Below the pieces are notes generated by a model. That model had not been told where the DNA came from, ran no database searches, and worked only from the letters and a program-made list of their open reading frames with translations. Shown one piece after another: positions 23,824 to 31,097 of a stretch of 64,000 bases of DNA (positions are counted from its first letter, which is position 1; each line of letters begins with the position of its first letter). Origin of the DNA: Candidatus Bathyarchaeia archaeon (lineage in GTDB: Archaea; Thermoproteota; Bathyarchaeia; Bathyarchaeales; Bathycorpusculaceae); the NCBI GenBank assembly GCA_050012755.1, contig JBEKGO010000006.1, positions 1 through 64,000 of the forward strand, written 5' to 3'. Both the position numbers and the translations under genes were made by a program.

Positions 23824-24750
23824 GTGACAAAAGTGCGGAAAATCGGTCTTTACGTCTTGATTCTCATTATCCTGAGCTGTCCATGCATTACAAACCTTTT
23901 GATTGTCAAGTCTGAAGTTGTTGCAAACACAGTTACCATTAGTTCCGATGGGAATGTTGTGCCTTCATCCGCGCCAATTGAGCATAACGGAAACGTTTAC
24001 ACTTTGACAAGTAATATTTCGGGGAGTATAGCCGTTCACAGAAGCAACATCGTTATTGACGGAGCTGGCTACTCTCTTAATGGCAATGGCGGTACAGGCG
24101 TAGATTTAACGAACAACTTAACTGAAGTTCCTTCCCCACAAGCAATATGGAATGTCACTATCAAAAACTTGGCGATATTAAGCTTCCACTTTGGAATAAA
24201 TACTCTCGGAGGAGGTAACGATGCTCTATACGATGATTATGTTGTCACAAGCATGAGCGGTAATGCAGGCGCAGTCTCCTTCTGGAGTTGTGGCGGAAAC
24301 AACGTTTCTTATTGCAGTATCATCGGTGAATCTGCGATTGACATGCAGTTTGGTTCAAGCCGCAACACCATAACTGATAACAACTTTGTTGGTAGCGTTT
24401 GGGTCGAGATAGGTGGAGATGAGACAGTTGATAGAAACTACTGGAGTGACTACTTTACAAGATATCCTAATGCAACCGAAATAGATTCAACTGGAATAGG
24501 CAATACACCGTATGTATTTTATTCATACGTAAACAATGCATCCGGTCTGACTAGCAGTCCACTCTATGATTACCACCCTCAAATTAAACCGCTTAGCCTT
24601 TCGTTCTTTCCAAGTGGCGCATCATTTGCTTCAACAAATCAACAAGCGTCAATTGCCGAATTCCCGTTAGCGATAATTGCTCTTGCCGTTGTACTTATAA
24701 CAAGCACATTGGTGGCCTTTGTGTACAAAATAGGACGCCCAAAATCTTGA
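23824..24750 (+). CDS. Secreted NosD/CASH-like beta-helix protein with PEF-CTERM-like anchor
   Basis: YTLTSNISGSI..SNIVIDGAGYSLNG, NYWSDY..DSTGIGNTPY..DYHP; C-terminal AEFP + TM + basic tail. Confidence 0.8.
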   Translation: MTKVRKIGLYVLILIILSCPCITNLLIVKSEVVANTVTISSDGNVVPSSAPIEHNGNVYTLTSNISGSIAVHRSNIVIDGAGYSLNGNGGTGVDLTNNLTEVPSPQAIWNVTIKNLAILSFHFGINTLGGGNDALYDDYVVTSMSGNAGAVSFWSCGGNNVSYCSIIGESAIDMQFGSSRNTITDNNFVGSVWVEIGGDETVDRNYWSDYFTRYPNATEIDSTGIGNTPYVFYSYVNNASGLTSSPLYDYHPQIKPLSLSFFPSGASFASTNQQASIAEFPLAIIALAVVLITSTLVAFVYKIGRPKS

Positions 24751-24799
24751 CACACTCATTTTTCAAGATTGGATATGGACTGTTTTTCAGATTCAAGTT

Positions 24800-25687
24800 C
24801 TATGTTGCTAGTGCATCCACTAAGGCTTTGACGTCTTTAATCCACGTGGTTATCGTTTCGATGTTCTCTGTCTGTTTATGTGAAATTTTGTGCAATCCTT
24901 TTAACTCGTCAAGTTGGTGCTGATAATATCTAGCCAATTGGTTTAGTGACTTTGTGAACTGTGTTGCCGATTCACCATGTTCCAGTTTGTCCCCTAAGCT
25001 ACTAAGCATGCTCTGCACCTCGTCCACTGACATACTACTGTTTTTCTCAAAGTCTTGAAGCACCCATTGTTTGACGAGCATGTTGCGGTTCCTCCAACCA
25101 GCGGATTGCTCAGTGAATGTTTTGAGTACGGCTTGGTAAAGTTGGGTGACACGATTTGTGTGAAGTTCCTGTGTTTGAGGCGTTTCTTCGGTTGTCATCT
25201 GAGTCTGGGAATTACGTAGCGGCTCAGCAGAGGAGACGGTTAAGCTCACAGAAAGCCTAAGTGGGGCATCCAACGCCATCCACAGCCTGCTTAGCTCTTT
25301 CAGAGAAAGCGAATCTATCTTCACCGCTAGCTCGCTCTTGTTCTCCGCATCTGCAACTTCAAGAAATGGCTTGTCTAAAAACATCTGAATTATTTTTGCA
25401 AGCAGTGCATGGTCGTCTTTGTCGTTTTCGGTAAATGGAGTAATGAGATAATGAAGGGCAAAAGAGGCATTGGTGTTTCCTGCCACTGTTTCTTCAGTTA
25501 TGTTGTATAGAAAAATCGTCAGCTTTTTGTTTCCTCGACTGATTGCGGTTTTTGGAGAAGAAAATGAAATCTGCTCTCGGGTTGAGACTGTCGCTGTTGT
25601 GGCGGAATCATTTTCTATGCATTCCCAAATTAGATTTGCAAGCGCCGTGTCGACATGCGATATGAGGTCTTTTTGATCCATAGACAT
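24800..25687 (-). CDS. DUF4255/Pvc16-N-like protein with extra helical C-terminal domain
   Basis: ISFSSP...LTIFLYNITE...LHYLITP...SLSLKELSRLW.AL..PLRLSV.LTV. Confidence 0.75.
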   Translation of the reverse strand: MSMDQKDLISHVDTALANLIWECIENDSATTATVSTREQISFSSPKTAISRGNKKLTIFLYNITEETVAGNTNASFALHYLITPFTENDKDDHALLAKIIQMFLDKPFLEVADAENKSELAVKIDSLSLKELSRLWMALDAPLRLSVSLTVSSAEPLRNSQTQMTTEETPQTQELHTNRVTQLYQAVLKTFTEQSAGWRNRNMLVKQWVLQDFEKNSSMSVDEVQSMLSSLGDKLEHGESATQFTKSLNQLARYYQHQLDELKGLHKISHKQTENIETITTWIKDVKALVDALAT

Positions 25688-25753
25688 CGTTTAACTAACG
25701 TGGTCAAGTTCCTAAAAAGAGTTAGCCAAATTTCCAGCTGCGTTTTTACATAA

Positions 25754-25780
25754 TAGCCCGGGATAGGTTCAAACTCTCGT
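25754..25780 (-). repeat. Direct repeat of the tRNA-Gln 3' end (att-like), 24/27 identical to 29742-29768
   Basis: tagcccgggataggttcaaactctcgt versus tagcccgggagagattcgaactctcgt. Confidence 0.85.
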
Positions 25781-26190
25781 TCAAACATTTTTCAATTACT
25801 ATCAATTTGAGAGCAAAAAGTAGCTGGATTGCTATTAAAACGGCTACATTTCTATCGCTTTTTGATAGTATACCCGAGAGTTCGACCATTTTCAGCAGTC
25901 ATGTTGTGTATATGTTATGACGCACCAGAAAACAAGAATTAAAGTGGCGCTTGTTTCAGAAATACTGCTTAATACAAGGCGTACTTTAGAAATGGGCTCT
26001 TAATAATACCACTTATAACCCACGTTTGCACTTACGTTTTAATTATTAGATTTGTTTTGATACGATGATTTTTGAGAGTATGTCTGTGTATTTAGGTCAA
26101 CTTTAAGCGCCTTATTATCGGTAAACTGAAGGTAACAGATCCCATTTTCACTTTTTCTCAATTTGGGCTAATTACTGAACCACTTTTTCT

Positions 26191-26502
26191 TTACGTACGA
26201 CGTTTTCGTCGCCGAATTAAAATCATCACTCCGTAGAGCACTCCTCCAGTGAATAGCGACATAAAGACTCCTTGAAACAGATTATACGCCAGACCATAAC
26301 CATCATAAAAATTAGAGATTAAACCAAACGATAAGAAGATACTTACCATAATTATAATAATTGCCTCGTTTGGAAGCTCTCTAATCTTGAAATGTTGCTT
26401 TAACCTGTTTTCAAATGAGGACAAAGTGGTTTTTTGGGGGTTTGGCAAAGAGGGCTCTTTTGGAAGCCAACCTCGAAAAAGATTCTCTATGCGCTTTTTC
26501 AT
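26191..26502 (-). CDS. Small 2-TM protein with N-terminal RGWLPKEPSLP motif
   Basis: ATGA-coupled to the upstream gene; two hydrophobic helices; basic tail. Confidence 0.8.
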   Translation of the reverse strand: MKKRIENLFRGWLPKEPSLPNPQKTTLSSFENRLKQHFKIRELPNEAIIIIMVSIFLSFGLISNFYDGYGLAYNLFQGVFMSLFTGGVLYGVMILIRRRKRRT

Positions 26503-27548
26503 ATTTCCAATACTCCAAAATTCGTTTTGTCAGCCCAGAGGTTCCCAAAAACCTTATCGTTAAATCCTACTTTTGCATTGACAGCCACTGAAAAGTGCGT
26601 TCCTTGAGGAACCCACAAGTCTGTTGAAAATGTTTCGCTTTGTTTGGGGTGGAGTGTTGATTCTGTCCAGCTTATTTTCGTTTTATAGTCAGAATTAACC
26701 AGAACGGTTTCAGGGTTTCCAATGTACAATGTTGCGATGCCTAGTCCGATGCCTATCGGAGTCCCGGGACTTGCTTGTGGCTCCCAATCAGTTGTGGCAG
26801 TTTCGTTTTGGGTGTCTATAGAGGCATTTACGATGGCAGAGTTAAAATTTCTTTGTGGACACTGCAAATCTATCTCTAAATAGTAGTAGTCTTTCTTGCT
26901 GTCAAGGTCCGCGTATTGGTATACGTTGACGCCGACGTTAAAACTGCCGTTATTACTTGTTTGGCTCAGGCTTTTTATCATTGTTTTTGAAGGATTAATT
27001 ATTTGTGGGTCCGCGGCGTAAACAGGCGCAAACGATGCGACGCATAACAACACCAACAATGCCACGGGCGCCACCTGAATCAACTTTGAGGACGCGATAC
27101 CTTTGCCCATGCGTAGCGCTACCAGATAAACTAAGACAACAGCTTCCAAAGGCAATGCGAACCTTAGCGGAACAACGTAAAATGCAACAAGCGATATTGC
27201 CAAAAATATAATGGCTATGTCTACCCAACCTTTTTTCAATGTGAGCAAGCCTGCGCCAACAACAAACAAGGCAACGCTGTCTGTTGCTGTTACTGTAGCC
27301 ATAAGGAACTGCACGTTAAAAGAGAGGTAGCCAAGTTGTGTTACCTGCTGTATAAGTGCCATTATTGCGCCAAAACCGAATATCCAAAGCAAAGCGGTAA
27401 CGAGCTTCAAGCCTAGTGGCGCTCGGCTTAAGAAAATTCTTGGGGCTTTTTTATTCTGTGAATTTGACGCATTTAAGGTTCTGGGAAGGCTTGGTTCTTT
27501 AGGTAACCAACCGCGAATGCGGCCTTGAAGGTACTTTAGTGGTTTCAT
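26499..27548 (-). CDS. Multi-TM protein with N-terminal RGWLPKEPSLP motif and C-terminal extracytoplasmic beta domain
   Basis: About 5 TM segments, then an S/T/N-rich beta-strand domain; ATGA-coupled on both sides. Confidence 0.82.
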   Translation of the reverse strand: MKPLKYLQGRIRGWLPKEPSLPRTLNASNSQNKKAPRIFLSRAPLGLKLVTALLWIFGFGAIMALIQQVTQLGYLSFNVQFLMATVTATDSVALFVVGAGLLTLKKGWVDIAIIFLAISLVAFYVVPLRFALPLEAVVLVYLVALRMGKGIASSKLIQVAPVALLVLLCVASFAPVYAADPQIINPSKTMIKSLSQTSNNGSFNVGVNVYQYADLDSKKDYYYLEIDLQCPQRNFNSAIVNASIDTQNETATTDWEPQASPGTPIGIGLGIATLYIGNPETVLVNSDYKTKISWTESTLHPKQSETFSTDLWVPQGTHFSVAVNAKVGFNDKVFGNLWADKTNFGVLEI

Positions 27549-28024
27549 GTACTCAACTCCGGAATAAGTTTACTGAAAATTACGCGAGCTAATTTGGCTG
27601 GGTGAATACTTTGGGCATCTTCCACTGTTATGCCTCTTTCTTTGGCTATGTCAATTAGATACTGCCGGGTTTGGTTTAGGAAGGCTGTGTCGGTGACTTC
27701 TTCAGGGTTGTCGTGCCAGTACCAAACTTTTATTCCGTAATTTGTGCTGTAGGTGAGGATGGCTTTGCGTTTTAAGGCGGGGTGATAAGCTAAAAGTATG
27801 CCTTCTTTGGGGTACAGTTTTGTGATTTGGAGGTCGTTTGCTTGGGCTACATCCAAAAGCGTGATTGATAACTTGGCTTCAGTTGCTAACTTTGTTTGGT
27901 TAATGAACTGCCTAGTAGTGTTAAGTTTGTCGGCAATTGTGGCGGCGGATAAACCTCTGCTTATCAAGGACCAAACGAGTTTTTGTTTCTGAGTTAATGG
28001 TGATGCTAAGGTGGAAGATACCAA
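27545..28024 (-). CDS. HTH DNA-binding protein (LuxR/sigma-r4-like HTH + unknown C-terminal domain)
   Basis: LTQKQKLVWSLISRGLSAATIADKLNTTRQFINQ. Start placed at TTG 28024 because the track start (28081) lies upstream of the TATA-like box. Confidence 0.78.
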   Translation of the reverse strand: MVSSTLASPLTQKQKLVWSLISRGLSAATIADKLNTTRQFINQTKLATEAKLSITLLDVAQANDLQITKLYPKEGILLAYHPALKRKAILTYSTNYGIKVWYWHDNPEEVTDTAFLNQTRQYLIDIAKERGITVEDAQSIHPAKLARVIFSKLIPELST

Positions 28025-28046
28025 CGTACACACGACGTAAATAATA

Positions 28047-28067
28047 AATTGTTTACAATTATTTAAG
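28047..28067 (-). promoter_or_regulatory. TATA-like box with adjacent palindrome AATTGT-TT-ACAATT
   Basis: Minus strand CTTAAATAATTGTAAACAATT directly upstream of the HTH gene. Confidence 0.55.
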
Positions 28068-28144
28068 GTTTCAGTCGGCAAAGATTAAAGGTCATTCTAA
28101 TGGCGACGTATATAGTCAGCCATCGCCGCGTCAACCAAAGGTCG

Positions 28145-28173
28145 TGTTCAATTTGGTTTGAACAGTGTTCAAA
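28145..28173. promoter_or_regulatory. Triple TGTTCAA half-site operator including perfect TTTGAACA-G-TGTTCAAA
   Basis: Half-sites at 28145-51, 28157-64 and 28166-73, just upstream of TATA-like CTTATAC (28182-88). Confidence 0.65.
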
Positions 28174-28223
28174 AGTGTAGGCTTATACATCGCATCGCTG
28201 ATTAAAATTGCAGGTGCCCAATC

Positions 28224-29045
28224 TTGAGTTTACCTAAGAGAAGTTTGATTAAGCCAATTGTTGCAGCGGTAATACTTGTGCTTCTAATAAGTGGAATAGC
28301 CATCTTTGTTCTTCCAAAGTACATTTACATTAGCCCTTTTTCCTCGTTCTACGGTTCAGGCGTTGTTTACTACAAGACTGTAGGATATAGCACTGAAATT
28401 AATGGCAGTCAATTACCAACATACTTGGTTTCAGTTACATTGTTAAACGATGACCCAGTGAATCATTTCTCGGGTGGAAATACTAACACATACACTGTTT
28501 CCAAGGCAGATTGGGATGTGATTGCCCCCGGAGATGGCGTGAATATTAAGCTTTTACCTAACGCACATGCACAGTTGGTTGATCAATTTCCAAACCCCGG
28601 TGGTACTCCTGCATGGCAATCGGTACCTGCAGACTTGCCGCTTACCCTTAATGTAACTTCCAACAAACCTCAATATACTATTGGAGAAACCGCCAACTTT
28701 ACCGTTCGCTTAATCAACGACCCTGCGTTGTCAAGCGGCATACCTTCCAATGTTTCACTTTCCCTTTTCAAAGATTGCATATTTTATACCTTCTTAAACG
28801 CAAAAATAATTACTTCAAATGACAATCTGCTCCAATATGACAATCCGCTTGAAATCAAAACTGTAAGTCTTCAGCCAAACCAAGAGATTGACTATTCATT
28901 CAATTGGAATCTCACAAATATTCAGCCAGGCACTTGTTTTGTGCGAGCATATATCGGATACTATCCTCCATTACAGGGTCAGTCGACAACGCTGTTTAGG
29001 TCGATAACGCTTACGGCAACAACGACGATCGATGTGACTAAATAA
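28224..29045 (+). CDS. Membrane-anchored extracytoplasmic protein with BsuPI-like Ig-fold domain
   Basis: N-terminal TM; LTLNVTSNKPQYTIGETANFTVRLIN...LQPNQEIDYSFNW. Confidence 0.72.
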   Translation: MSLPKRSLIKPIVAAVILVLLISGIAIFVLPKYIYISPFSSFYGSGVVYYKTVGYSTEINGSQLPTYLVSVTLLNDDPVNHFSGGNTNTYTVSKADWDVIAPGDGVNIKLLPNAHAQLVDQFPNPGGTPAWQSVPADLPLTLNVTSNKPQYTIGETANFTVRLINDPALSSGIPSNVSLSLFKDCIFYTFLNAKIITSNDNLLQYDNPLEIKTVSLQPNQEIDYSFNWNLTNIQPGTCFVRAYIGYYPPLQGQSTTLFRSITLTATTTIDVTK

Positions 29046-29474
29046 ATGACAGATCGAAACGCTGACAGAAAGAACGAAGAGGTTTTGCATGGTAAAACCC
29101 TGCTCGTCTACCGATTCATTATAACCAAAAACGAGCCTGTCGGCGTAAGAGAAATCCAGCGGAAACTAAAGTTTAGTAGCCCCTCTCTTGCTCAATACCA
29201 CATAGACAAACTGAAGAATGAAGGCTTAATAAAAGAAGAAACAGGCGGATACATAGCGGATAAAGTCATTTTAAAGAATCTTGTACGATTTAGAAATATG
29301 CTGATTCCCCGTTTTTTCTTCTATTTCTTGGTCTTCACCCTCGGCTTCATCGTGGAGCTTACTTTGCTACTTCCACCAATTGTCACCAGAGAATATGCGG
29401 TCGCTGTCGGGTTCACGTTGGCTGGTGCCGTAGCCTTTGGTGTTGAGACCTACAGAAACTGGAGAAGACTGTAA
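29046..29474 (+). CDS. Winged-HTH regulator with two C-terminal TM helices
   Basis: VGVREIQRKLKFSSPSLAQYHIDKLKNEGLI, then two hydrophobic helices; start abuts the upstream stop. Confidence 0.85.
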   Translation: MTDRNADRKNEEVLHGKTLLVYRFIITKNEPVGVREIQRKLKFSSPSLAQYHIDKLKNEGLIKEETGGYIADKVILKNLVRFRNMLIPRFFFYFLVFTLGFIVELTLLLPPIVTREYAVAVGFTLAGAVAFGVETYRNWRRL

Positions 29475-29741
29475 CTACTTCTGTCTAGGGCAAATTCAGC
29501 TCGGACCCAAGATTGCATGTAGCCCAAGAAGGTTATCATGCTTCTGTGTGAGCCCTTTATTCTTTTAAGGTGAGCCTAATTGCGGGGCCTAGATTATCGT
29601 ATGGGTCTCTATGGTTCCAGACTCAGTTAAAGGTGAGGCCGTCCAGTTCCCCCATAGAATTTGCCAAACGTTCTCCGCTTCCAAACTTGTTCGCTCTTTT
29701 TGATTCGAGAGTTTGAAAGTCGACCTAACTAGTGTTTGATG

Positions 29742-29814
29742 TAGCCCGGGAGAGATTCGAACTCTCGTCAAGGGCTCCAGAGGCCCCTATGCTTGACCAC
29801 TACACCACCGGGCT
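29742..29814 (-). tRNA. tRNA-Gln(CTG)
   Basis: AGCCCGG/CCGGGCT acceptor stem (archaeal A1-U72), GGGGC-CTCTGGA-GCCCT anticodon arm, GAGAG-TTCGAAT-CTCTC T arm. Confidence 0.97.
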
Positions 29815-29865
29815 GCAGGTTTCAAATAAAACATCGTTCCAATTATTAACTTTAACTTGACCTGA

Positions 29866-30072
29866 TTAGCCGCCGTTTTTCTTCTTTAACGCTTCTCGTG
29901 CACAGTAGCATTCTTGGCTAACTTTATTCCAGTCCTCGCAGTGCCAAAGTGTGTCAACTATTGGGTTCTTGTTTTGTGCGTGTCGGGTTGAGCAAAAAAC
30001 TTTTGTTGGGTAATCGTATGAGTTGTGGCTGTCACAGTTACCGCAGTACTTTTCCACATCGTCGCCTGTCAT
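29866..30072 (-). CDS. Small Cys-rich metal-binding protein
   Basis: CGNC..C..C..CYC; ATGA overlap with dys. Confidence 0.7.
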   Translation of the reverse strand: MTGDDVEKYCGNCDSHNSYDYPTKVFCSTRHAQNKNPIVDTLWHCEDWNKVSQECYCAREALKKKNGG

Positions 30073-31097
30073 GGTTTAGCTTCCTTTATTTGGTTTTCAA
30101 ATTCTAGAAAAGGAGTTCGCGTGAAGCTTTGGCCTAATCTTTCCGTTACCGAGGCAACAATAAATGGGAAAACCATCAATGCCTCCCCTATAACCATTAC
30201 GTGGTCAGCTTGACCCTTCATTTTTCCCCAACTTACCGTCTCCTCCAAAGTTGAGCCTGATAAACCACCCGTTTCAGGACGATCCAGAGTGATGACTATA
30301 GCGTAATCTAGGCCTTTCTTGGAAGCCAACGCTGAAGACTGGATAGTGTTTCGCGGCACTCCTCCGCCAATTACTATCATTCCGTTCTTAGGTGACTTAG
30401 CGCAGATATTGCAAACTGTTGCCACATCTTTGAATGCGTCAAGCAAAAGCACCGGTTTGGGGTTTTGCTGTGCTGAATGAAGCCAGTGGATAAAGCCGAA
30501 TTCTGAGTCTCTTACAGCTGGAAGAAAAATTGGGACGTTCTCTTCATATGCCGCTCGGAGAATAGAGTTTTTGTCTGTAAGACGTTTGCCTATTTCCCAG
30601 CTGAACTCGTTTGAAGCTAAACTATCTCCTTTGTGCTCGGCGGCAATATCATCGTACATTTCTGAAAGCTTGAAATCTAATTTGACATAGTCTTCTTCTG
30701 GAACGAAAATGTCGTATATTCGGAAAAGATGATATTTGTAGAGTTCAGTGTCATTTACTGCCCAGCCTCCAATGTAGTGATGCCCACCCACGGCTTCGAT
30801 AGCATCGTGAACCATGCATGCACCAGTGCTGACAATCACGTCGACTAGTCTTTTTCTGATCAAATCAGTGATTAACATTCGCATGCCAGCAGGGACAACC
30901 GCGCCTGAAAGAGCTAGGAAGATTGTGCAGTCTTTGTCTTTGAGCATTTTCTCGTAAATATCACACGCTGCCGATAAGCGTCCAGCGCCAAGAGCGCCTG
31001 AACCTTTAAACTGCTGCATTAACTGGTCAACGGTTAAAGTCCCGTCGATTTTTATGTGTTTGACTGGGGTGTGGAGGTAATCTTTTCTTTCCATCAA
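30069..31097 (-). CDS. dys: Deoxyhypusine synthase
   Basis: IGGGVPRN, GGLSGSTLEETVSWGK (catalytic Lys), RIYDIFVPEEDY. Confidence 0.93.
   Translation of the reverse strand: MMERKDYLHTPVKHIKIDGTLTVDQLMQQFKGSGALGAGRLSAACDIYEKMLKDKDCTIFLALSGAVVPAGMRMLITDLIRKRLVDVIVSTGACMVHDAIEAVGGHHYIGGWAVNDTELYKYHLFRIYDIFVPEEDYVKLDFKLSEMYDDIAAEHKGDSLASNEFSWEIGKRLTDKNSILRAAYEENVPIFLPAVRDSEFGFIHWLHSAQQNPKPVLLLDAFKDVATVCNICAKSPKNGMIVIGGGVPRNTIQSSALASKKGLDYAIVITLDRPETGGLSGSTLEETVSWGKMKGQADHVMVIGEALMVFPFIVASVTERLGQSFTRTPFLEFENQIKEAKP

Follow-up and report, generated by a model that had tools for sequence, protein, structure and literature searches.

A helix-turn-helix regulator gene followed by membrane proteins with a shared N-terminal tag in Bathyarchaeia: a candidate module coupling the membrane to gene control

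Among the systems that tie membrane proteins to transcription, extracytoplasmic function (ECF) sigma factors are co-transcribed with membrane anti-sigma factors, including those with zinc-binding anti-sigma (ZAS) domains, and the cytoplasmic N-terminus of the membrane anti-sigma factor binds the sigma factor. Archaea have no sigma factors, and we know of few membrane-to-gene routes in these organisms. Another such system is SdpR/SdpI of Bacillus subtilis, in which, according to PMC2910880, an autorepressor is captured by a co-transcribed polytopic membrane protein. Here we analysed a 64,000-nucleotide stretch of DNA from a Candidatus Bathyarchaeia archaeon (assembly GCA_050012755.1, contig JBEKGO010000006.1, positions 1 to 64,000 of the forward strand; the window, from here on), in which a gene for a helix-turn-helix (HTH) regulator is followed by two genes for otherwise unrelated membrane proteins that begin with the same short peptide, referred to below as the tag. 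A literature search of limited coverage found no description of a module of this kind, and it looks like an undescribed way to couple membrane proteins to gene control.

The three genes lie on the minus strand, and the overlap of each with the next in the sequence ATGA, first noted when the DNA was read on its own, was found at both junctions (27548-27545 and 26502-26499). The regulator gene (27545..28033, minus strand) encodes 162 aa from GTG 28033, with a LuxR/Tfx-like HTH followed by a C-terminal alpha/beta domain. Its open reading frame (ORF) runs from TTG 28081 to the stop at 27545, with GTG 28033 and TTG 28024 as other possible starts, and by comparison with homologues one of the latter two is likely to be used. 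It is followed by a gene for a 349-aa protein (26499..27548, minus strand) with the tag in residues 1-22 (MKPLKYLQGRIRGWLPKEPSLP; 27483..27548, minus strand), five predicted transmembrane (TM) helices and a beta-rich C-terminal domain, and then by a gene for a 103-aa protein (26191..26502, minus strand) with the tag in residues 1-20 (MKKRIENLFRGWLPKEPSLP; 26443..26502, minus strand), two predicted TM helices and a basic C-terminus. Both membrane proteins start with the pattern ..RIRGW[LFIV]P[KQE][ED]P that marks the module elsewhere.

Within the two tags, the 11-mer RGWLPKEPSLP is identical, as the sequence-only reading had stated, and occupies residues 12-22 of the 349-aa protein (27483-27515) and residues 10-20 of the 103-aa protein (26443-26475). 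Eight of its 11 codons differ between the two genes, again as first reported, and 21 of the 33 bases are identical; a random synonymous draw with the genome's own codon usage would give 6.87 codon differences in 11. The further claim that the two proteins share nothing else also stood, as BLASTP of the tag-stripped 349-aa and 103-aa proteins against each other gave no alignment at E <= 100. Across the whole 2.41-Mb genome, GW.P.EP occurs in just three six-frame ORFs of at least 50 aa. The third of these, on contig C20, is a 282-aa polytopic protein directly behind a paralogue of the HTH gene, whose stop it overlaps by 4 bases, as in the window.

For the 349-aa protein, which has only 14 relatives among 5.8 billion proteins and matches no Pfam family, AlphaFold2 (AF2) gave a model of low confidence (predicted local distance difference test, pLDDT, 60.5), with a short helix (3-12) and a low-confidence stretch (14-41) ahead of the first TM helix (TM1), five helices (45-173) and an all-beta C-terminal domain (188-348). 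This domain contains three N-x-S/T sequons. Both features fit the large extracytoplasmic domain that had been proposed for this protein, within the limits of a low-confidence model.

The same arrangement recurs well beyond this genome. A scan of species-representative genomes returned 68 loci with the HTH gene, 62 of them labelled as Bathyarchaeota, Bathyarchaeia or their genera and 6 with broader labels. At 60 of the 68 loci, between one and nine same-strand tag ORFs stand directly behind the HTH gene (162 in total), and each of the 162 starts with the tag, whose consensus is M-N-V-K-K-S-L-E-N-R-I-R-G-W-[LF]-P-[KQ]-E-P. Among the eight exceptions, two loci end at the HTH gene, three have a neighbouring tag gene in the opposite orientation, one is unclear and two have no tag gene. 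The reverse test used a 30-column tag profile over the window's own genome and two complete genomes, and of its 27 matches (E <= 1), 25 had an HTH gene of the family no more than 7 kb away; the two without such a neighbour score weakly (E 0.11 and 0.96), and their ORFs encode just 58 and 33 aa. Linkage between the motif and homologues of the HTH gene, a consequence of the original proposal, therefore holds both ways. We read the three genes in the window as an operon belonging to a conserved Bathyarchaeial HTH and tagged-membrane-protein module, with co-transcription predicted from gene order, and we give this reading as a whole, including the mechanism proposed below, a slight preference.

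What is conserved in the tag is the peptide. Among tag pairs from the same locus, 794 of 1386 identical residues other than Met and Trp are encoded by different codons (0.573), close to the 0.636 expected under random synonymous choice, so the tag is conserved at the peptide rather than the DNA level. Together with the codon differences in the 11-mer, this bears out the earlier suggestion of selection on the peptide rather than recent duplication. The tag glycine is residue 13 in 125 of the 162 proteins. The bodies behind the tags form 31 BLAST clusters; at one extreme are two-helix proteins some 100 aa long, and at the other proteins that exceed 500 aa and have NosD/beta-helix domains. In 150 tagged proteins the tag is covered by no Pfam family, judged from the listed 25 of 41 matched families.

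The bodies have membrane insertion in common. TM helices and topology were called with a simple hydropathy script, by which all 153 complete tagged proteins (153/153) have at least one predicted TM helix, the first beginning at about residue 30-68. The segment before TM1 carries a mean net charge of +5.8, and Lys and Arg together average 3.17 in the 15 residues before TM1 vs 0.60 in the 15 after it, with the N-terminal side richer in 143 of the 153. By the positive-inside rule, this Lys/Arg bias indicates that the tag lies on the cytoplasmic side (N-in). Two other identities for the tag were considered and rejected. It is not a Sec, Tat or class III signal peptide, since it has no hydrophobic core (the best 11-residue stretch has a mean hydropathy of -0.35) and no RR or [KR]G-hydrophobic pattern. 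Nor is it the leader of a ribosomally synthesized and post-translationally modified peptide (RiPP), an idea prompted by a modelled contact along an edge strand (see below), as the 'cores' would then be membrane proteins 96-637 aa in length and no modifying enzymes are apparent in the operons.

The promoter region of the HTH gene is conserved along with the genes. In the window, a TATA-like box (CTTAAATAA; 28059..28067, minus strand), the presumed operon promoter, is centred about 30 nt before GTG 28033, and between it and the start codon lies a 20-bp inverted repeat, GTAAA-N10-TTTAC (28037..28056, no strand assigned), which ends 3 nt before the GTG and is a candidate operator of the HTH protein. 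The exact repeat is present in 58 of 64 upstream regions, always with a spacer of 10 and at a fixed distance to the gene, and a TATA-like word stands at a fixed place in 57 of the 64 aligned regions; upstream of HTH genes the palindrome directly follows the TATA-like CTTAAATA. With this spacing, the transcript of the HTH operon would be nearly leaderless. Archaeal repressors usually have their operators there, between TATA box and start codon or transcript start. Because the palindrome has 20 bp and lies over the regulator's own promoter, we read the regulator as a probable dimeric autorepressor. A wider regulon was considered and rejected: the genome has only four spacer-10 palindromes, two at the two HTH promoters, one (C18:19581) at the 3' end of an ORF of 151 aa and one (C29:24756) within a gene. 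A scan for sigma-70-type promoters and terminators gave nothing useful, its model not having been made for archaeal promoters.

The regulator itself belongs to a large family. It has 1352 relatives at E <= 1e-3 in a set of 5.8 billion proteins; the 120 relatives listed are 154-178 aa long and 78-100% identical, those with names come from Bathyarchaeia, and none of the 120 carries a precomputed Pfam domain. Pfam matched the HTH protein weakly to GerE (E 0.017; 15.1 bits vs a cut-off of 23.5) and weakly to HTH_11. In an AF2 model (pLDDT 87, predicted template modelling score, pTM, 0.79), a three-helix HTH is followed by one long helix, then by a sheet of four strands (69-105) and by helices at the C-terminus. 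The HTH domain superposes on the DNA-binding domains of RhlR, LiaR and GerE at 0.8-2 A over 44-52 columns (probability about 1, Foldseek E-values 0.2-0.5), and profile matches to PDB 8hno (E 3e-6) and to Tfx (1nr3; E 6e-4) cover the HTH only. For the C-terminal domain, there was no match in PDB or Pfam.

We modelled the two conserved elements together, folding the regulator alignment with a 30-residue tag alignment. The complex scored 0.72, compared with 0.27 for the best control. Among solved complexes 58 of 80 reach that mark, and among mismatched pairs 2 of 110 do; because we used alignments of our own, this comparison is rough only. At least 64% of contacts are common to the runs, and the partner pLDDT is at least 51. 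In the model, tag residues 11-17 (IRGWLPK) meet regulator residues 102-111, 113, 122, 125 and 144-153, that is, the invariant KVWYWHDNPE block and the HPAKLA helix; the invariant regulator columns at this interface are K102, W104, Y105, W106, P110, H144, P145, A149 and F153. As the most conserved residues of both partners meet, the model supports binding of the tag by the regulator. The sequence-only reading had taken the motif for a docking peptide and had named the C-terminal domain of the HTH protein as the part to model with it; the contact was modelled and the controls were passed, and linkage, selection on the peptide, the N-in charge bias and the joint change of tag and regulator (next paragraph) all agree with docking, binding itself being a prediction.

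The wider family offers a comparison between tags. A profile search of 1.84 billion representatives gave 144 clusters at E <= 1e-3, and the regulator superfamily is present in 132 of 401 sampled Bathyarchaeial genomes (E <= 1e-10), often in several copies, and in 28 of 401 genomes of a phylum-wide sample (E <= 1e-5). Distant full-length relatives have a nearly invariant C-x2-C-x5-C, which aligns to V113, T116 and T122 of the window protein. Where the regulator has this Cys triad (43 loci), the partner carries an aromatic or aliphatic residue followed by Cys near its N-terminus at 38 loci (e.g. DYCPQP, NWCPEP, RWCPQPE or MGWCP), GW[LFIV]P at 0 and neither at 5. Where the regulator lacks the triad (78 loci), the partner carries GW[LFIV]P at 62 loci, neither motif at 15 and the Cys-containing motif at 1, a spurious case in an out-of-frame ORF; Cys follows the Trp in 0 of the 162 non-Cys-type tags. 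In the model of the window pair, T122, which aligns to the third Cys, touches L15 of the tag, the position of the partner's Cys. This contact suggests a site shared by the two proteins in Cys-type pairs, made of three cysteines from the regulator and one from the tag. Reading the alignment, we found no fourth conserved ligand within the Cys-type regulators. Promoters of Cys-type paralogues have TGTAAGC-N8-GCTTACA or TGTCAAC-N6-GTTGACA at the same place, so the geometry is kept with other half-sites.

Histidines also set the two types of regulator apart. In window-type regulators H84 and H144 never vary and H107 hardly does, and H144 is part of the modelled interface; Cys-type regulators have Ser at position 84 and Pro (or Leu) at position 144. 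These histidines may be substitute contacts for the lost cysteines.

Putting these elements together, we propose that the regulator represses its own operon and that the cytoplasmic tags of membrane proteins from the same transcript dock or sequester it through its C-terminal domain, an account that we consider somewhat probable. A regulator dimer would bind GTAAA-N10-TTTAC between the TATA box and the start codon and repress its own operon. A pocket of the C-terminal domain, formed by the KVWYWHDNPE strand and the HPAKLA helix, would take up the N-terminal tag of about 20 residues (RIRGW[LF]P[KQ]EP), and docking would keep the repressor at the membrane or alter its DNA binding, with derepression as the presumed direction. 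Expression of the operon would then track the state or amount of the tagged proteins, and a portable tag would let one regulator read many unrelated membrane proteins. Sensing of a signal by the tagged proteins is likewise presumed. A more far-reaching form of this proposal, which we hold only tentatively and consider rather doubtful, is that the C-terminal domain is a dedicated tag reader, one factor for a portable peptide on dozens of membrane proteins, and that the ancestral site was a metal or redox site of three regulator cysteines and one tag Cys, replaced in the window's subfamily by a hydrophobic contact (V113, T116 and T122 vs Leu or Phe).

Several observations weigh against docking on an autorepressor as we propose it. 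One regulator and one to nine tag carriers share a transcript, so under plain sequestration the repressor would be permanently titrated unless the tags were kept masked until the arrival of a signal, as in SdpI. The linkage is incomplete: at 15 of the 78 non-Cys loci the HTH gene is not directly followed by a tag gene, at L045, L007 and L099 the gene that comes next encodes an untagged membrane protein, and the ATP-binding cassette (ABC) transporter operons L072-L074 put the tagged protein as the fifth gene. The score of the complex is the model's own confidence, and the partner pLDDT is about 52. The change in the tag that goes with the Cys triad amounts to one independent pair: on a tree of 117 regulators, Cys triad and tag type each change once, on the same branch, so the switch is a single event and not statistical covariation. 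Finally, one Cys-triad subfamily (L087, L089 and L093) has partners with a Cys-free 'EKVIRPP.QQITSG' tail.

A related account accepts that the regulator binds the tag and differs in the outcome, with the tag serving as co-repressor or co-activator and the regulator acting on DNA from its tether at the membrane, as a non-covalent counterpart of ToxR/CadC, or with the regulator acting as an escort or assembly factor for tagged proteins. It draws on the same linkage and binding model as docking on an autorepressor, and the stoichiometry of one regulator to up to nine tag carriers per transcript favours a co-factor role; the operator, however, lies between TATA box and start codon, in the usual archaeal repressor position. 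Sequence cannot tell these outcomes apart, and we rate this alternative as unlikely. A different view takes the HTH protein for no more than the repressor of the operon and the tag for a sorting, insertion, processing or quality-control signal, addressed to machinery encoded elsewhere. Like targeting signals, the tag does occupy the very N-terminus, and its distance from Met1 is fixed (G13 in 125/162); all bodies are membrane proteins, and some of the same operons also contain untagged membrane proteins. Yet the tag lacks the hydrophobic core and the twin-arginine or class III pattern of such signals, it is found essentially only beside the HTH family in the three whole genomes, its key residue changes along with the regulator's Cys triad, and the complex model passes its controls. 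Taken together, these points leave a separate sorting signal rather improbable in our estimation.

The identity of 11 residues, taken alone, could also have come from a DNA-level repeat (recent duplication or gene conversion) or from a chance match. Such an origin is refuted by the differing codons, with 21 of 33 bases the same, by synonymous sites in the tags that are near saturation across loci, and by the recurrence of the tag 162 times in 68 loci, and we give it practically no weight. If the tag does dock the repressor, as we prefer to think, the module would provide a general and portable coupling of arbitrary membrane proteins to transcription. A large group of 'dark matter' membrane proteins, perhaps with the DUF1673 expansion of Methanosarcina among them, would gain a function, and synthetic biology would gain a compact peptide/reader pair. 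As a tag and its reader, the two elements would form a modular multi-input transmembrane signalling hub in archaea without a described counterpart, and one that is common in Bathyarchaeia, judging by the number of sampled genomes with the regulator superfamily.

A few variants and neighbours are recorded here in their own right. In the subfamily of L087, L089 and L093, the regulators read ..WYKHDSYAGK.C..C.....C.. and the partners start ..EKVIRPP.QQITSGTIFKPSK.., with no Cys and no aromatic-Cys pair; their promoter repeat is laid out differently, as GTAAA-N3-TTTAC followed by GGTAAA. At L079, L109, L110, L112 and other Cys-type loci, the partner gene is in frame with the regulator, with one stop and one or a few codons between them, and read-through would make a covalent fusion of regulator and membrane protein. 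The intervening stop is TGA, TAG or TAA in different loci, and because of this variation recoding is unlikely. Two longer relatives stand out. In P0213 (287 aa), which lacks the HTH, the N-terminus is hydrophobic and roughly 170 additional residues are joined to the C-terminal (proposed tag-binding) domain; in P0211 (275 aa), a complete Cys-type regulator is preceded by an additional N-terminal region that resembles a winged helix. Both could be genuine fusions or products of misassembly. The ABC-transporter operons (L072 986-5533, L073 1658-6378, L074 989-4410; found in two complete genomes) have the order HTH gene, secreted protein, ABC ATPase, ABC-2-like permease, membrane protein and single-pass short-tagged protein (TQGWLPQDPYIPS), and at L073 a tagged gene is upstream of the HTH gene. 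This variant fits a sensory role and is no proof of it.

Around the operon in the window, a 295-aa protein (24800-25687, minus strand) matches Pvc16_N (PF14065, E 3.9e-23), a tail terminator domain of contractile injection systems, over its N-terminal 150 residues; the ORFs listed for 24000-31000 include no sheath or tube genes. On the plus strand (28224-29474), in divergent orientation to the HTH operon, the gene for a 273-aa TM-anchored protein abuts that for a 142-aa protein in which hydrophobic segments come after a LexA-type winged helix (PF01726, E 9.8e-6), and the two are possibly a second membrane-linked regulator pair. A tRNA-Gln (CTG; 29741-29814, minus strand) is the sole tRNA between 20000 and 34000.

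Among the described proteins with which the module can be compared, those of the DUF1673 family resemble it in the tag. The sequence-only reading pointed to a comparable N-terminal motif in these Methanosarcina membrane proteins, and Table 2 of Makarova et al. 2014 (PMC4158269) lists 'MGWCP motif, DUF1673'. Both are expanded sets of membrane proteins with an N-terminal G-W-C-P, and some Cys-type Bathyarchaeial partners carry GWCP or MGWCP itself (L083 and L136), whereas the window tags read RGWLP, with Leu in place of Cys. The link therefore extends to the motif and stops short of the family: the DUF1673 model (PF07895, cut-off 30.4 bits) had no hit at E <= 1 in the window proteins or in 7 Cys-type partners, was absent from all 17 tagged or partner proteins scanned singly and from the listed 25 of 41 families of the 150 tagged proteins, and had none in the window's own genome (E <= 0.01), with a control search positive in Methanosarcina acetivorans.

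On the regulator side, Tfx (PDB 1nr3; TFX_C, PF14601) and PDB 8hno, an 'archaeal transcription regulator', are of similar size and have a related N-terminal HTH, and by sequence the Tfx-like HTH proteins are its nearest relatives. Protein-atlas feature scores of 0.87-0.88 to the Tfx/8hno group are a lead only, and the regulator differs from 8hno/8hnp in structure, with Foldseek TM-scores of 0.25-0.41. TFX_C had no hit at E <= 1 after the HTH, and just the HTH aligns to 1nr3. We know of no tag-bearing partners of Tfx.

The analogy with ECF sigma and anti-sigma factors, by which the module was originally described, is a loose one, because the HTH protein has no sigma region 2 and has its own 20-bp palindromic operator over its own promoter. 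The resemblance is that a region-4-like HTH protein shares a transcript with a membrane protein, which is proposed to bind through its cytoplasmic N-terminus, and, for ZAS anti-sigma factors, that the wider regulator family has cysteines at the predicted interface. Pfam gave no hit to sigma-70 region 2 in the HTH protein, and region 4 was matched only weakly (Sigma70_r4_2, E 0.082) in a distant relative, P0136. Unlike the helical domain of about 90 residues in anti-sigma factors, the binding element here would be a short peptide with a conserved part of about 20 residues, and, unlike in ZAS factors, three of the four cysteines in Cys-type relatives are on the regulator and not on the membrane partner.

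The module is closer to SdpR/SdpI. In both, a small HTH autorepressor (as predicted here) is encoded first and a membrane protein next in the operon, control by membrane retention being our proposal for the archaeal module. SdpR is an ArsR-type winged helix, whereas here the HTH is of the LuxR/Tfx type and the C-terminal domain matches neither a solved structure nor a Pfam family; Pfam gave no ArsR (HTH_5) hit for the HTH protein, and the SdpI family was not among the listed 25 of 41 Pfam families of the 150 tagged proteins. SdpI is one homologous family with its cytoplasm-facing motif within the body of the protein, whereas the archaeal module has a portable N-terminal tag of about 20 residues, carried by at least 31 unrelated bodies and often encoded in arrays.

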